UHGV virus genome: UHGV-0075699
Reading direction: 5' to 3' (one strand)
Source of the DNA: a virus
Length of the DNA: 19,854 bases
In this document: one piece after another, positions 2,293 to 9,742 of the stretch
Layout of the letters: each line of letters begins with the position of its first letter
Position numbering within the stretch: position 1 is the stretch's first letter
Notes under the pieces: model-generated
What the model was told of the DNA's origin: nothing
The model's input: the letters and a program-made list of their open reading frames with translations, nothing else
The model's database searches: none
Translations under genes and position numbers: made by a program

Positions 2293-2754
2293 ATGGCAAT
2301 TAATTTACCAGTGTACTTTATGAACAGCAGCGGGGAATTTTCAACTACACCGCAACCAATGGCTGTACCCGTGATAGTTGTCACATTTGCAGCGGTTGAC
2401 AAAGATAATCATTATCAAATACCGAACCCCGAGAAACATGAATCAGCTATGGTTCTGATCGATACTGGTGCTACCGCCTGTTATATCGATAATGATTTTG
2501 CTGATGAATTAGAACTCCCAGTTACCAGCGAAATCCAAGTTCGGGGAGGAACTTCTACAATTAATTCAACAGCTCGCAGGGCGGTTATGAGCCTAACAAA
2601 CGACGGGCGCCTTTTTTCTCAAGAATTTCATGCAACCCCTTTAGTTAATAATGGGCGACACTTCAAAGCAATTCTTGGGATGGAGTTTCTTCAACACTGC
2701 TCATTCACGCTTGACTACAAAAATAACAAATTCGAGTTGTTGTTTAATAGTTAA
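2293..2754 (+). CDS. Retropepsin-like (clan AA) aspartic protease, moron gene
   Basis: Protein contains VLIDTGATACYID (D-T-G-A catalytic motif in hydrophobic context) and a C-terminal AILGMEFL motif resembling the retropepsin I-I-G-R-D-x-L element. AAGGAA RBS 5 nt upstream of ATG. Gene is visibly AT-richer than its flanks and opposite in orientation to the late operon. Confidence 0.65.
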   Translation: MAINLPVYFMNSSGEFSTTPQPMAVPVIVVTFAAVDKDNHYQIPNPEKHESAMVLIDTGATACYIDNDFADELELPVTSEIQVRGGTSTINSTARRAVMSLTNDGRLFSQEFHATPLVNNGRHFKAILGMEFLQHCSFTLDYKNNKFELLFNS

Positions 2755-2929
2755 GCCATGCCGGTAGAAATACTACTGTGGTTTCTGAGTGCGGCTCCCC
2801 CATCAGCGGCTTGCTATCACATGGTGCTTGCCGCTGTCCCCAGATATTAATCATTCTCAGATCTATAACCTCCACATCCTTGTTACATATTGCATCTTCC
2901 TGCATTTTAATGCACTGGGCTAAGGTCAT
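2744..2929 (-). CDS. Hypothetical small protein (61 aa), uncertain
   Basis: ORF with GAGGA RBS 4 nt upstream of ATG at 2929, just downstream of the Rz stop; no motif recognised. 3' end overlaps the convergent protease gene by 11 nt. Confidence 0.25.
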   Translation of the reverse strand: MTLAQCIKMQEDAICNKDVEVIDLRMINIWGQRQAPCDSKPLMGEPHSETTVVFLPAWLNY

Positions 2930-2968: not shown

Positions 2969-3481
2969 TTATCCCTTAGCAGGGATAGAAGTTCTCACCG
3001 ATTTGTAAATCCGCTCACAGATCATTCCTGCGGTGTAGCGTTCGTCAGCGATTTCAGCATACCGTCGAGCTTCTTCTGCAAGGTCTCCAAGCATGTCGGC
3101 GAGCATTCCGGCGGTGGTGCCGGTTGTTTTGCTTCTGACGGTAGCGGCAAGACTTGTGGTGTGCTTTGCGGCGTCCAGGCGGGTGGCAAAGGCTTTTGCC
3201 TGCTGGCGCAGCTGGTTAACAGTGCCAGAGAGATTAGCAGCAGCAGCACGCGCTGCAGCGGTTTGAGCTTGAGCATCTTGTACGGCCTCATCGCGGGCGA
3301 TCAAGCGCCCCTGTTCAATCATCCGGGCGACGGTTTGCGCATTCACTGCCTGTGCCGATTCGTCAATATCACGTTGCAGCCATTTGGATTGCCACTGTGT
3401 ATCCTTCCAGAATGCACCTGCGCCAAATGCACCGGTGAGGATCAAACCAATCACAAAACCTTTTGCTTTAGCGCCCATCAT
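2969..3481 (-). CDS. Rz-like inner-membrane spanin (i-spanin)
   Basis: N-terminal TM segment ([18 protein letters not shown]) followed by an Ala/Gln-rich predicted coiled-coil periplasmic domain; located immediately after the lysozyme gene with overlapping start; a second gene is embedded in another frame. Start placed at the ATG at 3481 (ORF track begins at TTG 3484). Confidence 0.8.
3022..3276 (-). CDS. Rz1-like outer-membrane lipoprotein spanin (o-spanin), embedded in Rz
   Basis: Alternative-frame ORF wholly inside Rz; [23 protein letters not shown] has a signal peptide ending in a lipobox-like LLTSC, followed by a Pro-rich mature region ([18 protein letters not shown]). Classic embedded Rz/Rz1 architecture. 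Confidence 0.7.
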
Positions 3482-4007
3482 CAAGCCCCCAGCACGTCAG
3501 CGCACTTTCCTGATCACGGCGCGTTACCTGCCCGTAGCAGTTATTGGAGCGCACCCGGCAATCCTTCCCTCCGTCTTTAATCCACCAGCGAATCGCTTCA
3601 CATGCGCCTTTACGGTCGCCAGCGTTAATCCGCTGGTAGAACGTCGACGGGAAGCAGCGACCGGGACCGATGTTGTACGGACAGAATGAGGCAATGCCGA
3701 CTTTTTGCGGTGGGGTCAGTGGAACGTGGATATTCCGATCAACCCACGCCAGCGCCTTATCACGTTCGACAGCATTCACCTCATCGCATTTGGTCTGGGT
3801 CAGTTTCATACCCTGCGTGACGGGTTTACCATCAATACGCGTGGCACCGCGGCAAATAGTCCAGATCCCCTGGCTGCCATCGCGATACGCGGTCAGCCTG
3901 TTCCCTTCTTTCTCATCAAGGAACTGATCCATTAGAGTAGGCGCAGATGCACCGGCAGCAATGAGCGCCAGCATGGCAGCGCTGAGTTTTGTTTTCATCG
4001 ATGCCAT
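3468..4007 (-). CDS. Endolysin, GH24 lysozyme (T4/P21-type) with N-terminal secretion signal or SAR domain
   Basis: [23 protein letters not shown] matches the E..D..T catalytic triad spacing of T4-type lysozymes; the N-terminus [21 protein letters not shown] is hydrophobic and Ala/Gly-rich with an AxA site. Confidence 0.85.
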
Positions 4008-4008
4008 G

Positions 4009-4257
4009 TCAGTGATCCTGCGGTGGCGGGGTTATATATCCGCGCGCCAGGGCTTTTTCATATGCTCTGGTCTGGCGCCGCTTGAAATAGAAGTTAACGA
4101 AAAATGTCAGCAGGCCAATTACAAATCCTCCGATAACCGCTACCAGGTTCCAGTCGAGATCATGAATCCATTTGGCAAGACCACCCCAGCAGATGAGGCC
4201 GCCCGAAGTGCAATAACCCACTGCCGAAGCAATTTTGTCAGGCATGGTTCTGTTCAT
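4009..4257 (-). CDS. Class II holin, phage-21 S-like (pinholin-type) with dual-start motif
   Basis: Starts MNRTMPDKIASAVGYCTSGGLICWGGLAKW...: two in-frame ATGs 4 codons apart (4257 and 4245) as in holin/antiholin pairs. Two TM segments, the first Gly/Ala/Ser-rich, and a basic C-terminus. AGGAGG SD 7 nt upstream. Pattern resembles recalled S21 ([26 protein letters not shown]...). Confidence 0.75.
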   Translation of the reverse strand: MNRTMPDKIASAVGYCTSGGLICWGGLAKWIHDLDWNLVAVIGGFVIGLLTFFVNFYFKRRQTRAYEKALARGYITPPPQDH

Positions 4258-4311
4258 CCGACACCTCCTGTTGAGGTGCTGTGTGCGTGAAATGAAGTGA
4301 GGAATGAGGGC

Positions 4312-4340
4312 AATAAAAAAGGCCGCCACAGAGGACGACC
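4312..4340 (-). terminator. Probable intrinsic terminator downstream of hicB (minus-strand sense)
   Basis: Minus-sense RNA GGUCGUC-CUCUGU-GGCGGCC (7-bp stem with two G-U pairs) followed by UUUUUUAUU; lies between the hicB stop (4365) and the holin RBS. Confidence 0.45.
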
Positions 4341-4364
4341 TTTTGATAGTGGGGACTGCACTGA

Positions 4365-4772
4365 TTACCGGACAATTATTTCCATTTTTTGTCCTAGTAC
4401 CGATAGTGCTTTTTGAATGGTGTCGATCTTGGTGCTATGACCAAGAGACACGATTCGCTGTACCTCCTGAGGGCGCGTATTAATCATGCGGGCCAGTTCA
4501 GCGTTACTGGTATTGGTACTGACCAGGCGGTTTAGCAATAATACCTTCGCCGCCACGCTTGATGGCACTTCAACAAACGCCTCACCCTCTGCTGAAGGTG
4601 CGGGGATCTCCCGGCGGTCGTCAAAATAGAAATCAAACGCCGTAACCAGGGCATCCTGCGCCATTTCTAACGCTTCCTCCCTGGTTGCCCCTCCCGTCAT
4701 TGCCTCGGGGATATCTGGGAAAAATACCGCCCAGCCGGTTTCGTCATGCTCAAAATTTACCGGATATCTCAT
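4365..4772 (-). CDS. hicB: HicB antitoxin
   Basis: From the internal ATG at 4772 the protein reads MRYPVNFEHDETGWAVFFPDIPEAMTGGATREEALEMAQDALVTAFDFYFDD...LSVLGQKMEIIVR, matching the recalled E. coli HicB pattern (MRYPV...FVDIPEA...DAL.TAFDFYFED...). Directly downstream of hicA. Confidence 0.85.
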   Translation of the reverse strand: MRYPVNFEHDETGWAVFFPDIPEAMTGGATREEALEMAQDALVTAFDFYFDDRREIPAPSAEGEAFVEVPSSVAAKVLLLNRLVSTNTSNAELARMINTRPQEVQRIVSLGHSTKIDTIQKALSVLGQKMEIIVR

Positions 4773-4819
4773 ATTGATTAAGTGAATCTCCACGAGTACC
4801 AGCCCCGGAGGGCTGGTTT

Positions 4820-4996
4820 TTATTTGATACCGAGTTGCTTCAAAATTGCTTTTCTCAGCGGCTCCGGGATTTCCTTGCCCGGGTGTCTCGGCATTATCGT
4901 TTGCTTGCCGTTGAGGTAAATTTTTAAGTGGTTGGTACCATCTTTAAACTCTGCCCCTTGAGCTGCAAGCCAACGCCTGAACTCGCTTTGCTTCAC
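4820..4996 (-). CDS. hicA: HicA mRNA-interferase toxin
   Basis: 58-aa ORF (below the ORF-track size cutoff) found by manual translation: VKQSEFRRWLAAQGAEFKDGTNHLKIYLNGKQTIMPRHPGKEIPEPLRKAILKQLGIK, closely matching recalled E. coli HicA (MKQSEFRRWLESQG...NHLKL...MPRHP...EPLRKAILKQLGL). GTG start preceded by AGGAGGAGG. Confidence 0.85.
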   Translation of the reverse strand: MKQSEFRRWLAAQGAEFKDGTNHLKIYLNGKQTIMPRHPGKEIPEPLRKAILKQLGIK

Positions 4997-5026
4997 TCCT
5001 CCTCCTGTCTGTTTAACTTGAGATAA

Positions 5027-5080
5027 TAATAAACATTTTTGTTTATTAAATCAAGCTAAAATATAAACATTTTTGTTTAT
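5027..5080. promoter_or_regulatory. Two palindromic operator-like sites upstream of hicAB
   Basis: TAATAAACA-TTTT-TGTTTATTA (5027-5048, perfect 9-bp arms) and ATAAACA-TTTT-TGTTTAT (5063-5080), same core repeated about 35 bp apart, located between the late terminator and the hicA RBS. Confidence 0.5.
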
Positions 5081-5110: not shown

Positions 5111-5134
5111 ACAAAAAACCCCGCCGAAGCGAGG
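5111..5134 (-). terminator. Late-operon terminator (tR'-like) downstream of the late promoter
   Basis: Minus-sense RNA CCUCGC-UUCG-GCGGGG (6-bp stem, UUCG tetraloop) followed by UUUUUUGUUGG; plus coordinates 5119-5134 stem, 5113-5118 A-run. Confidence 0.6.
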
Positions 5135-5171
5135 TTATTTATAAAAATGGCAAGATATCAAATTACCTCAA

Positions 5172-5225: not shown

Positions 5226-5945
5226 TTAATCACATTTTTCCGTTCTGACCTCTTCTATTTGCTCATGATATGTGTAGATGTTCTGCAATGCGTTGTTATC
5301 CATCTCAATGAAAGCCGTTTTAAGTCGTTCCCAATGCCCGGCATAAACCCTTTTCCAGGTTGAGCGGTCAACTGAAACCATACGCGCCAGAGCTGCGCCA
5401 GCGTAGGTTTTATACGTCTCATTATTCCGGGTCGCTGCAACCTCCTGGCCAGCCAGCCAGACCAGCCCCACAAGCTTTTTTATTACTCTCGATTGGATCG
5501 CCCTGCCTACTTGATAGTTCTGATATTCAGTCCAGACGTGTTCACACATCAGCGTCTGGTAACGGAAATTTAGATCGAAGCCATAGCAATAGCGCACCCA
5601 TGCCTGGTGATGTTCTTCCAGCAGGTTTACAGCGCGCCTCCACGGTGAATAACCGAATTCAATATCATTGATGGGCGGCATTGGCCGGCGGCGGCTGCGG
5701 GTCTCCATCACATAAACTGGAGTAGTCAGTGCCTTAACCACCGACGGGCCACAACCAATCCCCCCTTCCAGATCGACAAGATTGCGAGAGCACCGCGGAT
5801 TTTTATTCTTATCTGCCGGTGGGTTCTCGCTGAATGCCTCGAGTTGTCCCTTTGTTGCGCCGGATAAATCCAACAACGCTCGACGCACTTCAATACGGGT
5901 ATATTCCAGGTTTTGTAGGTTCATACTGCTCAACGCTCCATACAC
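5226..5945 (-). CDS. Probable late antiterminator Q (Qin/82-type Phage_antitermQ-like)
   Basis: 239-aa ORF located exactly where Q sits in lambdoid phages (after the nin-region genes, directly before a promoter-terminator pair and the lysis cassette). Assignment rests mainly on position and size; start could be GTG 5945 or ATG 5924. Confidence 0.5.
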   Translation of the reverse strand: MYGALSSMNLQNLEYTRIEVRRALLDLSGATKGQLEAFSENPPADKNKNPRCSRNLVDLEGGIGCGPSVVKALTTPVYVMETRSRRRPMPPINDIEFGYSPWRRAVNLLEEHHQAWVRYCYGFDLNFRYQTLMCEHVWTEYQNYQVGRAIQSRVIKKLVGLVWLAGQEVAATRNNETYKTYAGAALARMVSVDRSTWKRVYAGHWERLKTAFIEMDNNALQNIYTYHEQIEEVRTEKCD

Positions 5946-7006
5946 TATGCTTTTATAATTGCGCCGATCGCCATAGCTCGATCAAGAAAACGGAACAGCA
6001 GCTCCAACTGCGTGCCATTCTTCTCTTCAAAGGCGTTAACATCGGCATGTAGCTCGTCGTGGCACTCTCTGCACAGAGGAAACACGAAGAGATCGTGGGC
6101 TTTGGTTGCGGTACCGCCCATGCCATGGCCGATGACATGATGCGGATCGTCAGCTGGTCTGCGGCAGCATTCGCATGGTTGATGCTTAACCCAGTCGGTA
6201 TAAGTCTTGCTTACCCAGCGACGGCGCTTTGGCCTGAGCATGAAAGATTCCGGCGATTCCGGATCGGCAGTCAGCGCAAGCCCCTTCGGCTGGTCCTGGT
6301 GCGCCTGGACATTTTCGTTGCGCCTGCATTGCCTTGCTGTGCCTGCAGCTGGCAGTTTCTCCTGCAGAATGCTGGTGGCCGGTAAAGTAGGCCGGATATC
6401 GCTTTCTTTATACACCGACAGGAACGGCTCTTCAGGCAACCCTAGACCACGCTGCGCCATCGTCTCCGTAATGGCATCGGCTATACCTGACTGAACTGCC
6501 CACCAGCACAACTCTGCGATTGAAAGAGAGCGTTCTTTGTTATAACCGAGCCCGATCAGCACAGTATCTATTACCCAGTCGACTACATTACGAAGTGCCA
6601 GCGCCTCGATAGCTGGAGTCGACTGCTCCCGCAGTTTATTGTCACAATGCCAGCACACCAGCAACGCACCAGGCGGATGTCGCATCGTTACCATCTCGTT
6701 ATGGTGGTACTCGGAATGAGGGTACTGGCACCTCTTCAGCCGGAGAAACAGCCACCGTTCAAGCGCTGGCAATCCACCAGCAGCACGAATCACACGCTCA
6801 TCGGAAAAGAATACGTGCAGGCTGGAATCCTCCGCTAAAGGTTGTCGGGCATCAGGGACACGACCAGATGGCAAGCGGGCCATATTTTGTGGTTCAGCCT
6901 CGACTAAAACACGCCCGGCAGAAAACAGGTGCATCAGATCACGGCCGGGCTTAAATAGAACCACGCCGAGGCGTGGCACAATCTCAGGGGTGAGTAACGC
7001 TCTCAT
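5945..7006 (-). CDS. Cys/His-rich nin-region protein, DUF968-like with HNH-like metal-binding C-terminus
   Basis: C-terminal region HQPCECCRRPADDPHHVIGHGMGG...FPLCRECHDELH has paired CxxC and His clusters typical of HNH/zinc-binding nucleases; a second Cys cluster (LLVCWHCDNK) lies mid-protein. Start overlaps the MTase stop. Confidence 0.45.
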   Translation of the reverse strand: MRALLTPEIVPRLGVVLFKPGRDLMHLFSAGRVLVEAEPQNMARLPSGRVPDARQPLAEDSSLHVFFSDERVIRAAGGLPALERWLFLRLKRCQYPHSEYHHNEMVTMRHPPGALLVCWHCDNKLREQSTPAIEALALRNVVDWVIDTVLIGLGYNKERSLSIAELCWWAVQSGIADAITETMAQRGLGLPEEPFLSVYKESDIRPTLPATSILQEKLPAAGTARQCRRNENVQAHQDQPKGLALTADPESPESFMLRPKRRRWVSKTYTDWVKHQPCECCRRPADDPHHVIGHGMGGTATKAHDLFVFPLCRECHDELHADVNAFEEKNGTQLELLFRFLDRAMAIGAIIKA

Positions 7007-8853
7007 GCAACCTCACGCCGACCAGAAACACAAATTTCAGGAAGGTTTGCTCTTACAATCGCCTCAGCAAAGGGCGGCGGCACGGCGTTTCCGCACCTGG
7101 CGACTTGTTTCTCTTTCGAGTACCTCTTGCCGCGGTAGTCACGATCAATGATGTACCAGTCAGGGAATCCCTGAGCGCGGTAAAGTTCATGCGGCTGCAG
7201 CATGCGCATTCCGATATCAACAATGCGGTAAACAATACCCTTAATCGTCACCAGTTCGCTGACGCCAAAAGAATTCAGGAACTCTTTGACCTGATCCGCC
7301 CGGCGCTCGTCGTAATCATTAGCCGCCAGCAGCGCGCGAACCTCTCCAACATGCTGACCTCCAGCGGTGATTGTCGGCATTGGTTCACTGGTGCGCTGGC
7401 CATCGCGGCAGGTACCGCGCAGTTTAACCAGATGAGACGTAACCAGCGCATGGTGATCGACTGTGGTAACTGAGTGTGCAGGATCGTCCAGTCCGACGCC
7501 CGGGCCGGTATAGTTCCCGCCGTAGTGTTTCGCCAAAAACGCAGTTGTTACGGCAAATTTATTGCCACCAGCTACAACTGTTCCCAGCGGTTTACGCAGA
7601 TTTAGAACGCGCGGCGACTGCCCTACACGTTCGCCATACCCCATCTGAATAAGTGTGGCCGCGACAAGCTGTGACTTCCCCCCGCCGCCAGCGGTAATTG
7701 TTGCGCTGGGTTCATCCGCCCGGTGGCCGATGCTGGCGCCGAACTGACGCGCGATAACTGGCGCAACCAGGCAGGAGCGAGACTGTTTAAGGATGGTATG
7801 AGCGGGTTTATTCAATGGCCGCGGTTTCGCCTGGTACTCGCTACCCCCATTACCTGCCAGGAATGGAACCAACGTCGGTAACGCCAGCGCATAACCGTGG
7901 GTTTTGGTGATGGTTTGCAGGGGATCGGCCAGCGACTGTCCGCGGAAGCAATCATATTTACCGCGTGTTGTGGTGTGGTTGCATTTGACGATGAACGGAT
8001 TATCACTTTCGACGACAAACCGCTGGATGCCGCGCGCTATCCGTTTCAACGTGTTAATGGCCAGCGGCTTTTTACGGTCAAATATCGATGGTGCAGGAAT
8101 AGACCAGTCGATACACTCAGCAGCTGTCCGCCATGGTGCCAAATTTCCGGATTTAACTGCTGCGGATTTAGGGTCACCGTGAGTGACTCCCGGCCAGGCA
8201 ATGGGTTTATCGTCACAACGCATCAACATGAAGAATCGCTTGCGGATCGTCGGAGCACCATAATCACTGGCACGCAGTTCGCGATATTCGACCTTATACC
8301 CGAGGCCAGCAATCAGTCGTTTGGCTTGTTTGCCATCCGAGGATATGCCGAGAAATTCGCAACATTCGTACAGAGCCGGGTGATCCGCAGGTATACCAGT
8401 GGAAAGCATTCCAACAAATGCCAGGAAGGTTTCACCAGAACGCTTAGGATCAGGACGCATCTCACATGAAAGCAGCGGGCCCCACGTTTTAAATTCTTCA
8501 ACATTTTCGAGAGCCATTACACGAGGGCGAACATCCAATGCCCAGCGAACAGATACCCAAGCCAGGCCACGAATCTCACGTTTTACCGGTTTACTGCCGC
8601 GCGCCTTTGAATAGTGGGTACAATCCGGGCTGAACCATGCAAACCAGACAGCCTTTCCACCTGTCGCAGCGACAGGGTCAACGTCAAAGACGTTTTCACA
8701 ATAATGAAGCGTGTCCGGGTGATTCGTCCGGTGCATGGCCACGGCGTTTTCGTCGTGGTTAATGGCAATATCAACGCTGCGGCCGATCGCCATTTCTATC
8801 CCGGTAGATGCCCCACCACCGCCAGCAAAATTATCAACAATCAGCTCACGCAT
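7003..8853 (-). CDS. DNA (cytosine-5)-methyltransferase with large variable/target-recognition region
   Basis: Motif I DNFAGGGGAS (AdoMet binding), motif IV SPDCTHYS (catalytic Pro-Cys), motif VI ENV, C-terminal CGNAVPPP (motif X). About 400 aa lie between motif VI and the C-terminal motifs. Confidence 0.85.
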   Translation of the reverse strand: MRELIVDNFAGGGGASTGIEMAIGRSVDIAINHDENAVAMHRTNHPDTLHYCENVFDVDPVAATGGKAVWFAWFSPDCTHYSKARGSKPVKREIRGLAWVSVRWALDVRPRVMALENVEEFKTWGPLLSCEMRPDPKRSGETFLAFVGMLSTGIPADHPALYECCEFLGISSDGKQAKRLIAGLGYKVEYRELRASDYGAPTIRKRFFMLMRCDDKPIAWPGVTHGDPKSAAVKSGNLAPWRTAAECIDWSIPAPSIFDRKKPLAINTLKRIARGIQRFVVESDNPFIVKCNHTTTRGKYDCFRGQSLADPLQTITKTHGYALALPTLVPFLAGNGGSEYQAKPRPLNKPAHTILKQSRSCLVAPVIARQFGASIGHRADEPSATITAGGGGKSQLVAATLIQMGYGERVGQSPRVLNLRKPLGTVVAGGNKFAVTTAFLAKHYGGNYTGPGVGLDDPAHSVTTVDHHALVTSHLVKLRGTCRDGQRTSEPMPTITAGGQHVGEVRALLAANDYDERRADQVKEFLNSFGVSELVTIKGIVYRIVDIGMRMLQPHELYRAQGFPDWYIIDRDYRGKRYSKEKQVARCGNAVPPPFAEAIVRANLPEICVSGRREVA

Positions 8854-9742
8854 GGCTCACCCCCTGCATGCTTTCTACCAGTCCACCAGCAACAGTGATG
8901 ATCTCGCTGGTGGGCATACGCTCCAGCCACAGCTGGTTAATTTGCGCCATCAGCTTGTTTTGCTGGGACGGCTCCAGTCCTTCGGATCCTTCTACCTGTC
9001 GAAACACAAGCCCTACCTCCAGTGGCCAAATACGCGATTCCGTCTCTGGTAATTGCGTAGGCGTTGCGAGTGGTTCTACTGCCGCCGGCTGCGACATTAC
9101 CTGTGCTGGAGTATTGCCAACAGCAAACTGCGCCAGCATCATGAACGCTTGCCCTTTCCTTTCCAGATCCGCACGGTGGATATAGCCGAACCGCTCCCCG
9201 CGCCAGGCCTTATCAAACACGGCAATGGCGCCCGCAAAAAACGCGCTGGTGGGCTTTTGCTTATCATCAGCAGGGACAAACCACGCCGGGAGGTCGAATC
9301 CAATACGACCACGAATAAACATGATGTGATCGGCATCTTCTGGCCACCATGTTTCGCTCGGTGCTGCTTTGATGAGAAATACATAGCGCCCGCCCTTCTC
9401 ACGCTGCGCTGACGCGTAATTCATGATGTGCGTCATGCCAGTTATCGCCTGCTTTTCGTGGTACTGGGAGCGGCTATACGGTGGGTTGCCAAAGCCAGCG
9501 CCGCCAAGTTCTTCCAGACGAGCGGACCAATCTTGCGTCAGCGCGTTGTCTTCGGCGGTGAACCATACCGGGCATTTTGCGTTGCTATCGTCAGCAAACA
9601 GGTCCAGTACCAGCGGTCCAAACATTGCGTTAACGCCCCAGAACAGCAGATCAGGCGTGCGCCACTGATCACCAACGTCTTTCAGAAAATGGGACGGTGC
9701 AGCGCGCATGGCCGCCAGCGATTCACAATATGCATTCGTCAC
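8846..9742 (-). CDS. Phage-type DNA N6-adenine methyltransferase
   Basis: Contains GFGNPPYSRSQ (the NPPY motif of N6-adenine / N4-cytosine amino-MTases) with upstream AdoMet-binding-like segment. 8-nt overlap with the downstream C5-MTase gene. Confidence 0.8.
   Translation of the reverse strand: MTNAYCESLAAMRAAPSHFLKDVGDQWRTPDLLFWGVNAMFGPLVLDLFADDSNAKCPVWFTAEDNALTQDWSARLEELGGAGFGNPPYSRSQYHEKQAITGMTHIMNYASAQREKGGRYVFLIKAAPSETWWPEDADHIMFIRGRIGFDLPAWFVPADDKQKPTSAFFAGAIAVFDKAWRGERFGYIHRADLERKGQAFMMLAQFAVGNTPAQVMSQPAAVEPLATPTQLPETESRIWPLEVGLVFRQVEGSEGLEPSQQNKLMAQINQLWLERMPTSEIITVAGGLVESMQGVSHA

Follow-up and report, generated by a model that had tools for sequence, protein, structure and literature searches.

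Organization of the lysis cassette

The window analysed here, the whole stretch of 19,854 nucleotides from the virus genome UHGV-0075699, carries between positions 2969 and 4257 a minus-strand lysis cassette that belongs to a lambdoid prophage from Klebsiella and its relatives in the Enterobacteriaceae. The cassette runs from the first start codon of the holin (Met1, 4257) to the stop codon of Rz (2969), and contains four intact genes, all on the minus strand: a holin (4009..4257), a GH24 lysozyme (3468..4007), the i-spanin Rz (2969..3481) and the o-spanin Rz1 (3022..3276), which lies inside Rz in the +1 frame. The genes are tightly packed, with a gap of 1 nt between holin and endolysin and an overlap of 14 nt between endolysin and Rz. 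A pinholin-type cassette with embedded spanin genes had been proposed at this position in an earlier sequence-only reading, which also had Rz1 lying entirely within Rz in another frame, and the four open reading frames (ORFs), their family matches and the nested coordinates of Rz and Rz1 bear out both proposals. We consider the cassette likely to be of the pinholin, signal-anchor-release (SAR) endolysin and two-component spanin type.

Four contigs with an identical endolysin have gene calls for a holin of 82 aa, an endolysin of 179 aa and an Rz of 170 aa, and Rz1 was missed in them; embedded Rz1 genes are usually overlooked by gene callers. The four contigs on which the cassette is identical also carry full packaging and head genes. 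In the databases the proteins are labelled 'lysozyme', 'class II holin family protein' and 'DUF2514', the embedded Rz1 being unlabelled, and an NCBIfam search returned no specific family for any of the four. Annotation as pinholin, SAR-type endolysin, i-spanin and o-spanin is more informative than the present labels. The nearest phage DNA is that of Klebsiella phages (82-89% identity), whereas a megablast search of complete E. coli genomes gave just five matches, all partial and at 75-78% identity, indicating that this is not an E. coli element.

A holin with two hydrophobic segments and two conserved starts

The long product of the holin gene (4009..4257, minus strand) has 82 aa, begins with MNRTMPDK and is preceded by a strong Shine-Dalgarno (SD) sequence, AGGAGG, 6 nt 5' of its ATG. 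It matches the whole of the Pfam profile PF04971, 'Bacteriophage P21 holin S' (positions 1-64 of 64, E=4.7e-23, 81.4 bits against a cut-off of 26), as well as the holin family PHROG 20 (E=1e-23). Its hydropathy profile shows two peaks only (residues 9-28 and 36-58), and the C-terminal tail beyond them is basic. The first transmembrane domain (TMD1, I9-A28) is weakly hydrophobic, with a mean Kyte-Doolittle value of 1.2, a content of 55% Gly, Ala, Ser and Thr and two Cys, whereas TMD2 (W36-F58) is strongly so, with a mean of 2.4 and 22% of these four residues. A class I holin with three TMDs is excluded, since there are only two hydrophobic segments, and the distribution of charges suggests an N-in/C-in topology.

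The second possible start is Met5, at position 4245, from which a short product of 78 aa (4009..4245, minus strand, MPDKIAS) would be made. We compared the holin with a set of 39 homologues from Klebsiella, Enterobacter, Serratia, Erwinia, Pantoea and others, and found Met5, Pro6 and Lys8 to be invariant in the set. In 31 of the 39 sequences Met5 is preceded by a Met-initiated extension of 2-5 residues, which contains a Lys or Arg in all but one case (30/31), giving the dual-start motif M-x-[K/R]-x-M. As Met5 is invariant and the extensions keep a basic residue, this signature matches that of S21 71/68 and lambda S107/S105, both of which are antiholin/holin pairs (PMC9636201). By analogy, the long form, which has the additional Arg3, is presumed to be the antiholin, and the short form from Met5 the active pinholin. 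Two observations count against the use of both starts: Met5 lacks a good SD sequence of its own, the AGGAGG lying about 18 nt upstream of it, and seven homologues have database annotations that begin at Met5 alone. A longer ORF of 106 aa, from an in-frame GTG at 4329, was rejected, as this codon is located inside the upstream terminator hairpin and the extension has no counterpart in the homologues.

The dual-start arrangement MNRT-MPDK and a Gly/Ala-rich first helix like that of S21 had both been pointed out in the sequence-only reading. The former now stands on the invariance of Met5, and the latter on the composition of TMD1, in which the fraction of Gly, Ala, Ser and Thr equals that of the S21 TMD1. 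The same reading had named two findings that would speak against it, a lysozyme lacking any export signal and a holin with three or more transmembrane helices; what we find is a lysozyme with an N-terminal export segment and a holin with two hydrophobic segments.

Two Cys residues are conserved in TMD1 (window positions 4189-4212, minus strand), C16 in all 39 homologues and C23 in 38 of them. This pair is absent from S21 and from the S protein of the Shiga toxin (Stx) phage 933W. C16 and C23 could form disulfides once TMD1 has reached the periplasm, and might in this way act as a redox lock.

A GH24 endolysin of the 933W type

The endolysin (3468..4007, minus strand, 179 aa) is a T4-lysozyme-like muramidase of the 933W R/Qin RrrQ type, with matches to PF00959 (E=6e-24) and to the endolysin family PHROG 7 (E=2e-59). 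It is 82.5% identical to R of phage 933W, and among its relatives in the PDB are R21 (3hde, E=4e-15) and DLP12 RrrD. Searches with Foldseek against PDB and BFVD recovered the GH24 fold class, and were uninformative on the state of the N-terminus; the AlphaFold2 (AF2) model has a mean predicted local distance difference test (pLDDT) score of 80. Of the catalytic residues E34, D43 and T50, the first two do not vary, and T50 is kept in at least 90% of the sequences.

The GH24 triad has the consensus E-x8-D/C-x5-T. In this endolysin the spacing is E-x8-D-x6-T (DGSQGIWT, residues 34-50, window positions 3858-3908, minus strand), whereas in 933W R and most relatives it is E-x8-D-x5-T, one residue shorter. 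The endolysin of Klebsiella phage ST846-OXA48phi9.1 has the same x8/x6 spacing.

Eight Cys residues (52, 74, 109, 118, 136, 150, 157 and 172) are invariant among 41 homologues, and R21 lacks an equivalent of four of them. An insertion that AF2 models with pLDDT <50 lies between C150 and C157. Such a pattern, with four putative disulfides, is consistent with a disulfide-rich endolysin that acts in the periplasm.

The N-terminal segment of the endolysin

The sequence-only reading had described, at the N-terminus of the lysozyme, a hydrophobic Ala/Gly-rich segment with an AxA site, and had left open whether it is a cleavable signal peptide or a SAR domain. Such a segment is indeed present: after K5 and K7 there is an uncharged run of 19 residues (codons 8-26, 3930..3986, minus strand), of which 58% are Gly, Ala, Ser or Thr, and which includes the motif ASA22 directly followed by Pro23. 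We assign it as an export and membrane-anchor segment, and the sequence comparisons, the structural model and the analogy with known systems make it probable that it is an uncleaved SAR anchor.

Several lines of evidence point to this assignment. A Pro at +1 blocks signal peptidase I (rule as cited in PMC8385771), so that the canonical site after ASA22 is blocked by Pro23. Either position 21 or position 23 is a Pro in 110 of 113 endolysin homologues; Pro21 occurs in 40 of them, and there it spoils the two overlapping AxA sites together. The hydrophobic segment is as conserved as the catalytic domain, with an entropy of 0.53 bits against 0.46, while residues 2-7, the n-region, reach 1.94 bits; L8, S9, L15, G19 and A22 are invariant. 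Conservation to this degree suggests that the segment is a structural part of the mature protein. In the AF2 model residues 11-30 have pLDDT values of 94-95 and form two helices (10-17 and 22-34) instead of one protruding helix.

The relationship with R21 was followed through intermediate sequences. An exhaustive search of 1.8 billion representatives gave 46 relatives of the endolysin at E<=1e-30, and full-length relatives at 35-67% identity align with it from residue 3-10 onward. These relatives grade into N-termini like that of R21, for example IVAVAAAAAIALASVLVRSYEG, which reach the catalytic Glu and have no AxA site, and for this reason we regard the segment in the window as homologous to genuine SAR domains. 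In structure comparisons, full-length R21 (3hde) aligns over 175-182 columns and truncated R21 over 143. In the alignments, a stretch of 11 residues lines up with the latter half of the R21 SAR domain. While the segment resides in the bilayer, the first turns of the E34 helix would be buried, which is a plausible cause for the inactivity of a tethered form.

The hydrophobic cores of this endolysin and of 933W R differ at a single position (LSAA(M/V)). 933W R is handled as a SAR endolysin by the Young laboratory (PMC9239132), and the Mu releasin gp25 increases the release in E. coli of three heterologous SAR endolysins, 933W R among them (PMC9239132). The definitive test of a SAR domain is considered to be whether the inactive enzyme is tethered to the membrane and set free by depolarisation or by a pinholin (PMC9239132). 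A survey of Stx phages places this family among the predicted SAR endolysins that are paired with pinholins, a combination reported there for 99% of the phages (PMC8136144), and current practice already favours a SAR domain for endolysins of the 933W R type. Partners are swapped among related cassettes, and the same holin subfamily is also paired with proven types of SAR endolysin: in Serratia (L017) its partner is of the R21 type, and in Erwinia (L018) of the P1-Lyz type, with a Cys in the SAR domain. In Klebsiella phage ST846-OXA48phi9.1, an endolysin 93% identical to the present one is combined with a canonical holin of the S21 type.

The alternative is that the N-terminus is a cleavable Sec signal peptide, giving a soluble periplasmic lysozyme whose activity is kept in check by other means until the holin fires. 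The segment has the n-h-c layout of a signal peptide, with two Lys, a hydrophobic core of 11-15 residues and overlapping AGA and ASA motifs, and its length and hydrophobicity are in the range of OmpA, DsbA and MalE and outside that of the structurally proven SAR domains of R21 and P1 Lyz: the uncharged run of 19 aa compares with 24 aa in both R21 and P1 Lyz, and the summed Hessa value of +2.9 with +0.8 (R21), +0.5 (P1 Lyz) and +2.4 to +8 for OmpA, DsbA, MalE and other signal peptides (the R21 and P1 Lyz sequences were verified against the PDB). The Kyte-Doolittle and Hessa sums do not separate the two classes, and if anything place the segment with the signal peptides. The site AGA20|S21 satisfies the -3/-1 rule and is formally permissive; a scan with this rule and Pro vetoes finds positions 17-21 permissive, and does not discriminate. 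Furthermore, the catalytic domain keeps a helix of its own (22-34) before the catalytic Glu, so that a cleaved product could fold, the docking of the N-terminal helix is deduced from pLDDT values only, and the published releasin assay on 933W R is indirect. There is also a precedent in T4 RI, in which a claimed SAR domain proved to be a cleaved signal peptide (PMC8385771). Against cleavage stand Pro23 after the best site, the Pro21 that spoils both sites in 40 of the 113 homologues, the conservation of the h-region with its five invariant positions, which is unexpected for a peptide that is discarded, the very high confidence of the AF2 model across the segment, and its homology to the uncleavable R21-like SAR domains. 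The response of 933W R to a releasin, which acts on membrane-held SAR endolysins, likewise speaks against a soluble enzyme, and a freely secreted active muramidase would make a conserved and finely regulated pinholin pointless. On balance, we regard a cleaved signal peptide in this endolysin as unlikely, and somewhat more improbable still the wider proposition that the N-termini of the 933W R/Qin type are cleaved as in T4 RI, and that this very common family of endolysins in enterobacteria and Stx phages consists of truly secreted, soluble enzymes.

Were the family cleaved, something else than tethering would have to hold its members in check, for which the redox state of the eight invariant Cys and the energised state of the envelope are candidates, and the Cys pair in TMD1 of the pinholin might share the same periplasmic redox logic. 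The choice between a SAR domain and a signal peptide concerns thousands of E. coli and Klebsiella prophages and the lysis of Stx phages, and hence the release of toxin.

The embedded spanins

Rz (2969..3481, minus strand, 170 aa, ATG start) matches PF10721 (DUF2514, E=4e-39) and PHROG 312, 'Rz-like spanin' (E=5e-53), and has no match to PF03245 (Phage_lysis, the lambda Rz family) in the Pfam search. It is therefore placed outside the lambda Rz family proper, as a functional analogue from a different i-spanin sequence family; some relatives of the same holin are accompanied by PF03245 spanins. Its sole hydrophobic segment is the N-terminal TMD (about G8-W25), and the periplasmic part, with 29% Ala plus Gln, contains one Cys, C155. 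TTG 3484 was considered as an alternative start, and is disfavoured by the SD sequences and by the 170-aa gene calls on the identical contigs.

Rz1 (3022..3276, minus strand) is encoded as a precursor of 84 aa, and occupies the stretch from 0.40 to 0.90 of the length of Rz, a position of the o-spanin gene that is shown by about 70% of embedded spanins (PMC6139136). In this architecture the inner gene begins at about 0.4-0.5 of the length of the outer one and ends at 0.9-1. It matches PHROG 11621, 'Rz-like spanin' (E=4e-9), and no Pfam family. The lipobox LTSC fits the consensus [LVI][ASTVI][GAS]C, and the residue at +2 is Ala and not Asp, so there is no signal for retention in the inner membrane. 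The mature protein would have 62 aa, with 13 Pro and two Cys (C36 and C40) in the motif ECSPTC. The ATG at 3276 has a GAGG 9 nt upstream; SD sequences and gene calls led us to prefer it over the ATG at 3291.

Comparison with the Klebsiella prophage L007 shows that both overlapping frames are conserved as proteins: Rz is 59% identical, and the embedded frame is 56% identical over 81 residues, aligns without gaps and keeps ECSPTC. The nested Rz1 is therefore not a chance ORF. C155 of Rz and C36/C40 of Rz1 would be available for intermolecular disulfides. In the Klebsiella relatives L007 and L009 the embedded Rz1 (locus coordinates ~3980-4235) has a non-consensus lipobox, CSSC (LALCSSC), which is missed by a regular expression for the consensus.

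Start choice and late transcription

A 7-bp hairpin is located immediately upstream of the holin gene (4261..4279, minus strand), and its 3' arm is the SD sequence (AGGAGG) that serves Met1. Folding in a 50-nt window gives z=-2.3. Hairpins at the same position, with different sequences, are predicted in the Klebsiella, Enterobacter, Serratia, Erwinia and Pantoea relatives and in 933W, with z-scores around -2 in five of seven sequences and no significance in the other two. Start-choice structures of this kind, named 'sdi', are known in lambda S and phage 21 S. The hairpin at 4261-4279 may exert a similar, 'sdi'-like control over the choice of start.

Further upstream there are two terminator-like structures. 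One is an intrinsic-terminator-like hairpin (4311..4344, minus strand) of 11 bp followed by a U run, with a folding energy of -15.9 kcal/mol (z=-2.9); since it is situated between the stop codon of hicB and the start of the holin, late transcription must read through it. The other, detected by a consensus scan (5117..5136, minus strand), is just downstream of the gene for the Q antiterminator, in a tR'-like position. Q itself (5226..5945, minus strand) matches PF06323 (E=3.9e-35), and is presumed to be the activator of late transcription, including that of the lysis genes.

Comparison with known systems

The closest known counterparts are the cassette of 933W, which has been classed as pinholin plus SAR endolysin (PMC8136144, PMC9239132), and the lysozyme family of the E. 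coli Qin prophage. The present cassette and that of 933W share a near-identical N-terminal segment and the same eight Cys in the endolysin, a dual-start PF04971 holin downstream of Q, and a lipoprotein Rz1 embedded in the +1 frame. They differ in that the holin is only 32% identical to 933W S, and has here a periplasmic loop of 4 residues and the two conserved Cys in TMD1; in that Rz is of the DUF2514/PF10721 family and not of the lambda type PF03245; in the absence here of an ant gene between R and Rz; and in the presence of HicAB in place of stx and nanS-p. Such differences of detail, in the Rz family, the holin subfamily, the catalytic loop and HicAB, leave the kind of system unchanged, and it is a kind already described in Stx phages, including 933W (PMC8136144, PMC9239132). 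The features by which membership in the PF04971 holin and embedded two-component spanin families can be tested are all present in the window, as are the catalytic domain and the N-terminal segment expected of a SAR endolysin, and the finding has little significance beyond correct annotation.

The holin resembles S21 of phage 21 in Pfam family, in having two TMDs with a SAR-like TMD1, and in the dual start at Met1 and Met4-5 with an added basic residue. Met4 of S21 71 and Met4 of 933W S fall in the alignment column of Met5, and in TMD2 the residues G43, G48, T51 and N55 are identical to those of S21 at the same numbering. The endolysin of the same phage, R21, is a GH24 relative whose SAR domain aligns with the N-terminal segment through the intermediate relatives. 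In R21, however, 24 uncharged residues with a GGG motif extend almost to the catalytic Glu, whereas here the segment has 19 residues with an AGASAP turn and precedes an amphipathic helix (DQFLDEKE), and the catalytic domains are only about 25-30% identical.

P1 Lyz is a SAR endolysin activated by disulfide isomerisation. It resembles the present enzyme in its N-terminal export anchor, in a GH24 domain with a helix of its own before the catalytic Glu and in its periplasmic Cys, although as a structural match it is weak (rank 21). Caging through a disulfide with a Cys of the SAR domain, as in P1 Lyz, cannot apply here, because the N-terminal segment contains no Cys. At the other extreme is Lys44 of Oenococcus phage fOg44, a secreted endolysin whose Sec signal peptide is cleaved by signal peptidase I. 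In Lys44, as in T4 RI, the cleavage site is unblocked, in contrast to the present endolysin, which has a Pro directly after the best site and a segment with the conservation of a structural element.

Proposed mechanism

By homology with these systems, lysis would begin with Q-licensed late transcription, which would read through the two terminators into the cassette. Two holin products would be made from Met1 and Met5, in a ratio probably set by the SD-sequestering hairpin, and the longer form, with its extra Arg, would act as antiholin in the manner of S21 71/68. Both forms would insert with two TMDs, after which the weakly hydrophobic TMD1 may leave the bilayer, and TMD2, which has a face of small residues (A40/G44/G48) and the polar T51 and N55, would oligomerise into small holes. 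These pinholes would collapse the proton motive force at a programmed time; pinholins of the phage 21 S family make holes of about 2 nm, enough to depolarise the membrane and too small for a folded endolysin. The lysozyme would be exported by Sec through its N-terminal segment and be held uncleaved at the inner membrane in an inactive state; on depolarisation it would be released and the segment would refold onto the catalytic domain, as a close homologue that has been studied experimentally suggests. The Rz/Rz1 complex would then disrupt the outer membrane.

Two other explanations were weighed against this scheme. The canonical arrangement of lambda S/R, a large-hole holin with a cytoplasmic endolysin, has in its favour only the gene order S-R-Rz/Rz1 downstream of Q. 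It is already contradicted by the holin, which has two TMDs and not three and belongs to PF04971 and not to the lambda S family, and by the endolysin, with its eight invariant Cys and an N-terminal extension (about 22 residues, basic and hydrophobic) that is absent from the lysozymes of P22 and T4; we consider it extremely improbable. It could also be that the prophage is decaying, or that the holin is translated from just one of its starts; dual start and hairpin would then be relics without a regulatory role. The window is a metagenome contig, Met5 has no strong SD sequence nearby, the z-scores of the hairpin are modest and in two of seven sequences not significant, and the database annotations from Met5 only fit this idea as well. 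Nevertheless, the four ORFs are intact and tightly coupled, and the identical cassettes are found on contigs with full packaging and head genes. In addition, the 2-4 residues that precede the invariant Met5 vary and yet keep a basic residue, and the hairpin recurs with unrelated sequences, so that we hold decay or the loss of start choice to be very unlikely.

Genomic neighbourhood

The cassette is part of a lambdoid late region. Upstream of it, on the same strand, the gene order is Dam/Dcm-like methylases, a DUF968 protein, Q, a hairpin, HicA/HicB and a second hairpin. Downstream there are a convergent retropepsin-like ORF, two unknown phage ORFs and the small terminase Nu1. No tRNA genes were found in the window.

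The HicA/HicB pair (4820-4996 and 4365-4793, minus strand) is placed between Q and the holin, in the moron slot that is taken by stx in the Stx phages. The pair has a promoter-like site of its own (5026-5054) and is followed by the terminator-like hairpin before the holin. HicAB also adjoins the same holin subfamily, in the opposite orientation, in Klebsiella L007-L014 (~2218-2878) and in Erwinia L018 (1636-2286).

The convergent ORF (2293-2754, plus strand) encodes 153 aa with a retropepsin-like aspartyl protease domain (motif DTGA), and matches PF13975 and PF13650 (E ~1e-7) and no PHROG family. It is transcribed towards Rz, between the lysis genes and Nu1, which is the place of bor in lambda and 933W, and the identical contigs have it as well. 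Directly after Rz there is an ORF of 61 aa (2744-2929, minus strand), which overlaps the 3' end of the protease-like gene. The gene calls on the identical contigs include this ORF, for which neither Pfam nor PHROG gave a match.

In the Klebsiella prophages L007 and L011-L014, which have the same holin/endolysin/Rz cassette, a gene of the Acb2/Tad1-hairpin family (~5555-5886) is located about 1.5 kb downstream of the spanin. Members of this family are anti-CBASS/anti-Thoeris-like, and the window has no such gene at that position. The methyltransferase genes upstream of Q are two adjacent genes (7003-9742, minus strand), followed by the DUF968/HNH-like gene; one codes for a protein of 616 aa with an N-terminal C5-cytosine methylase domain and the other for a Dam-like N6-adenine methylase of 298 aa.

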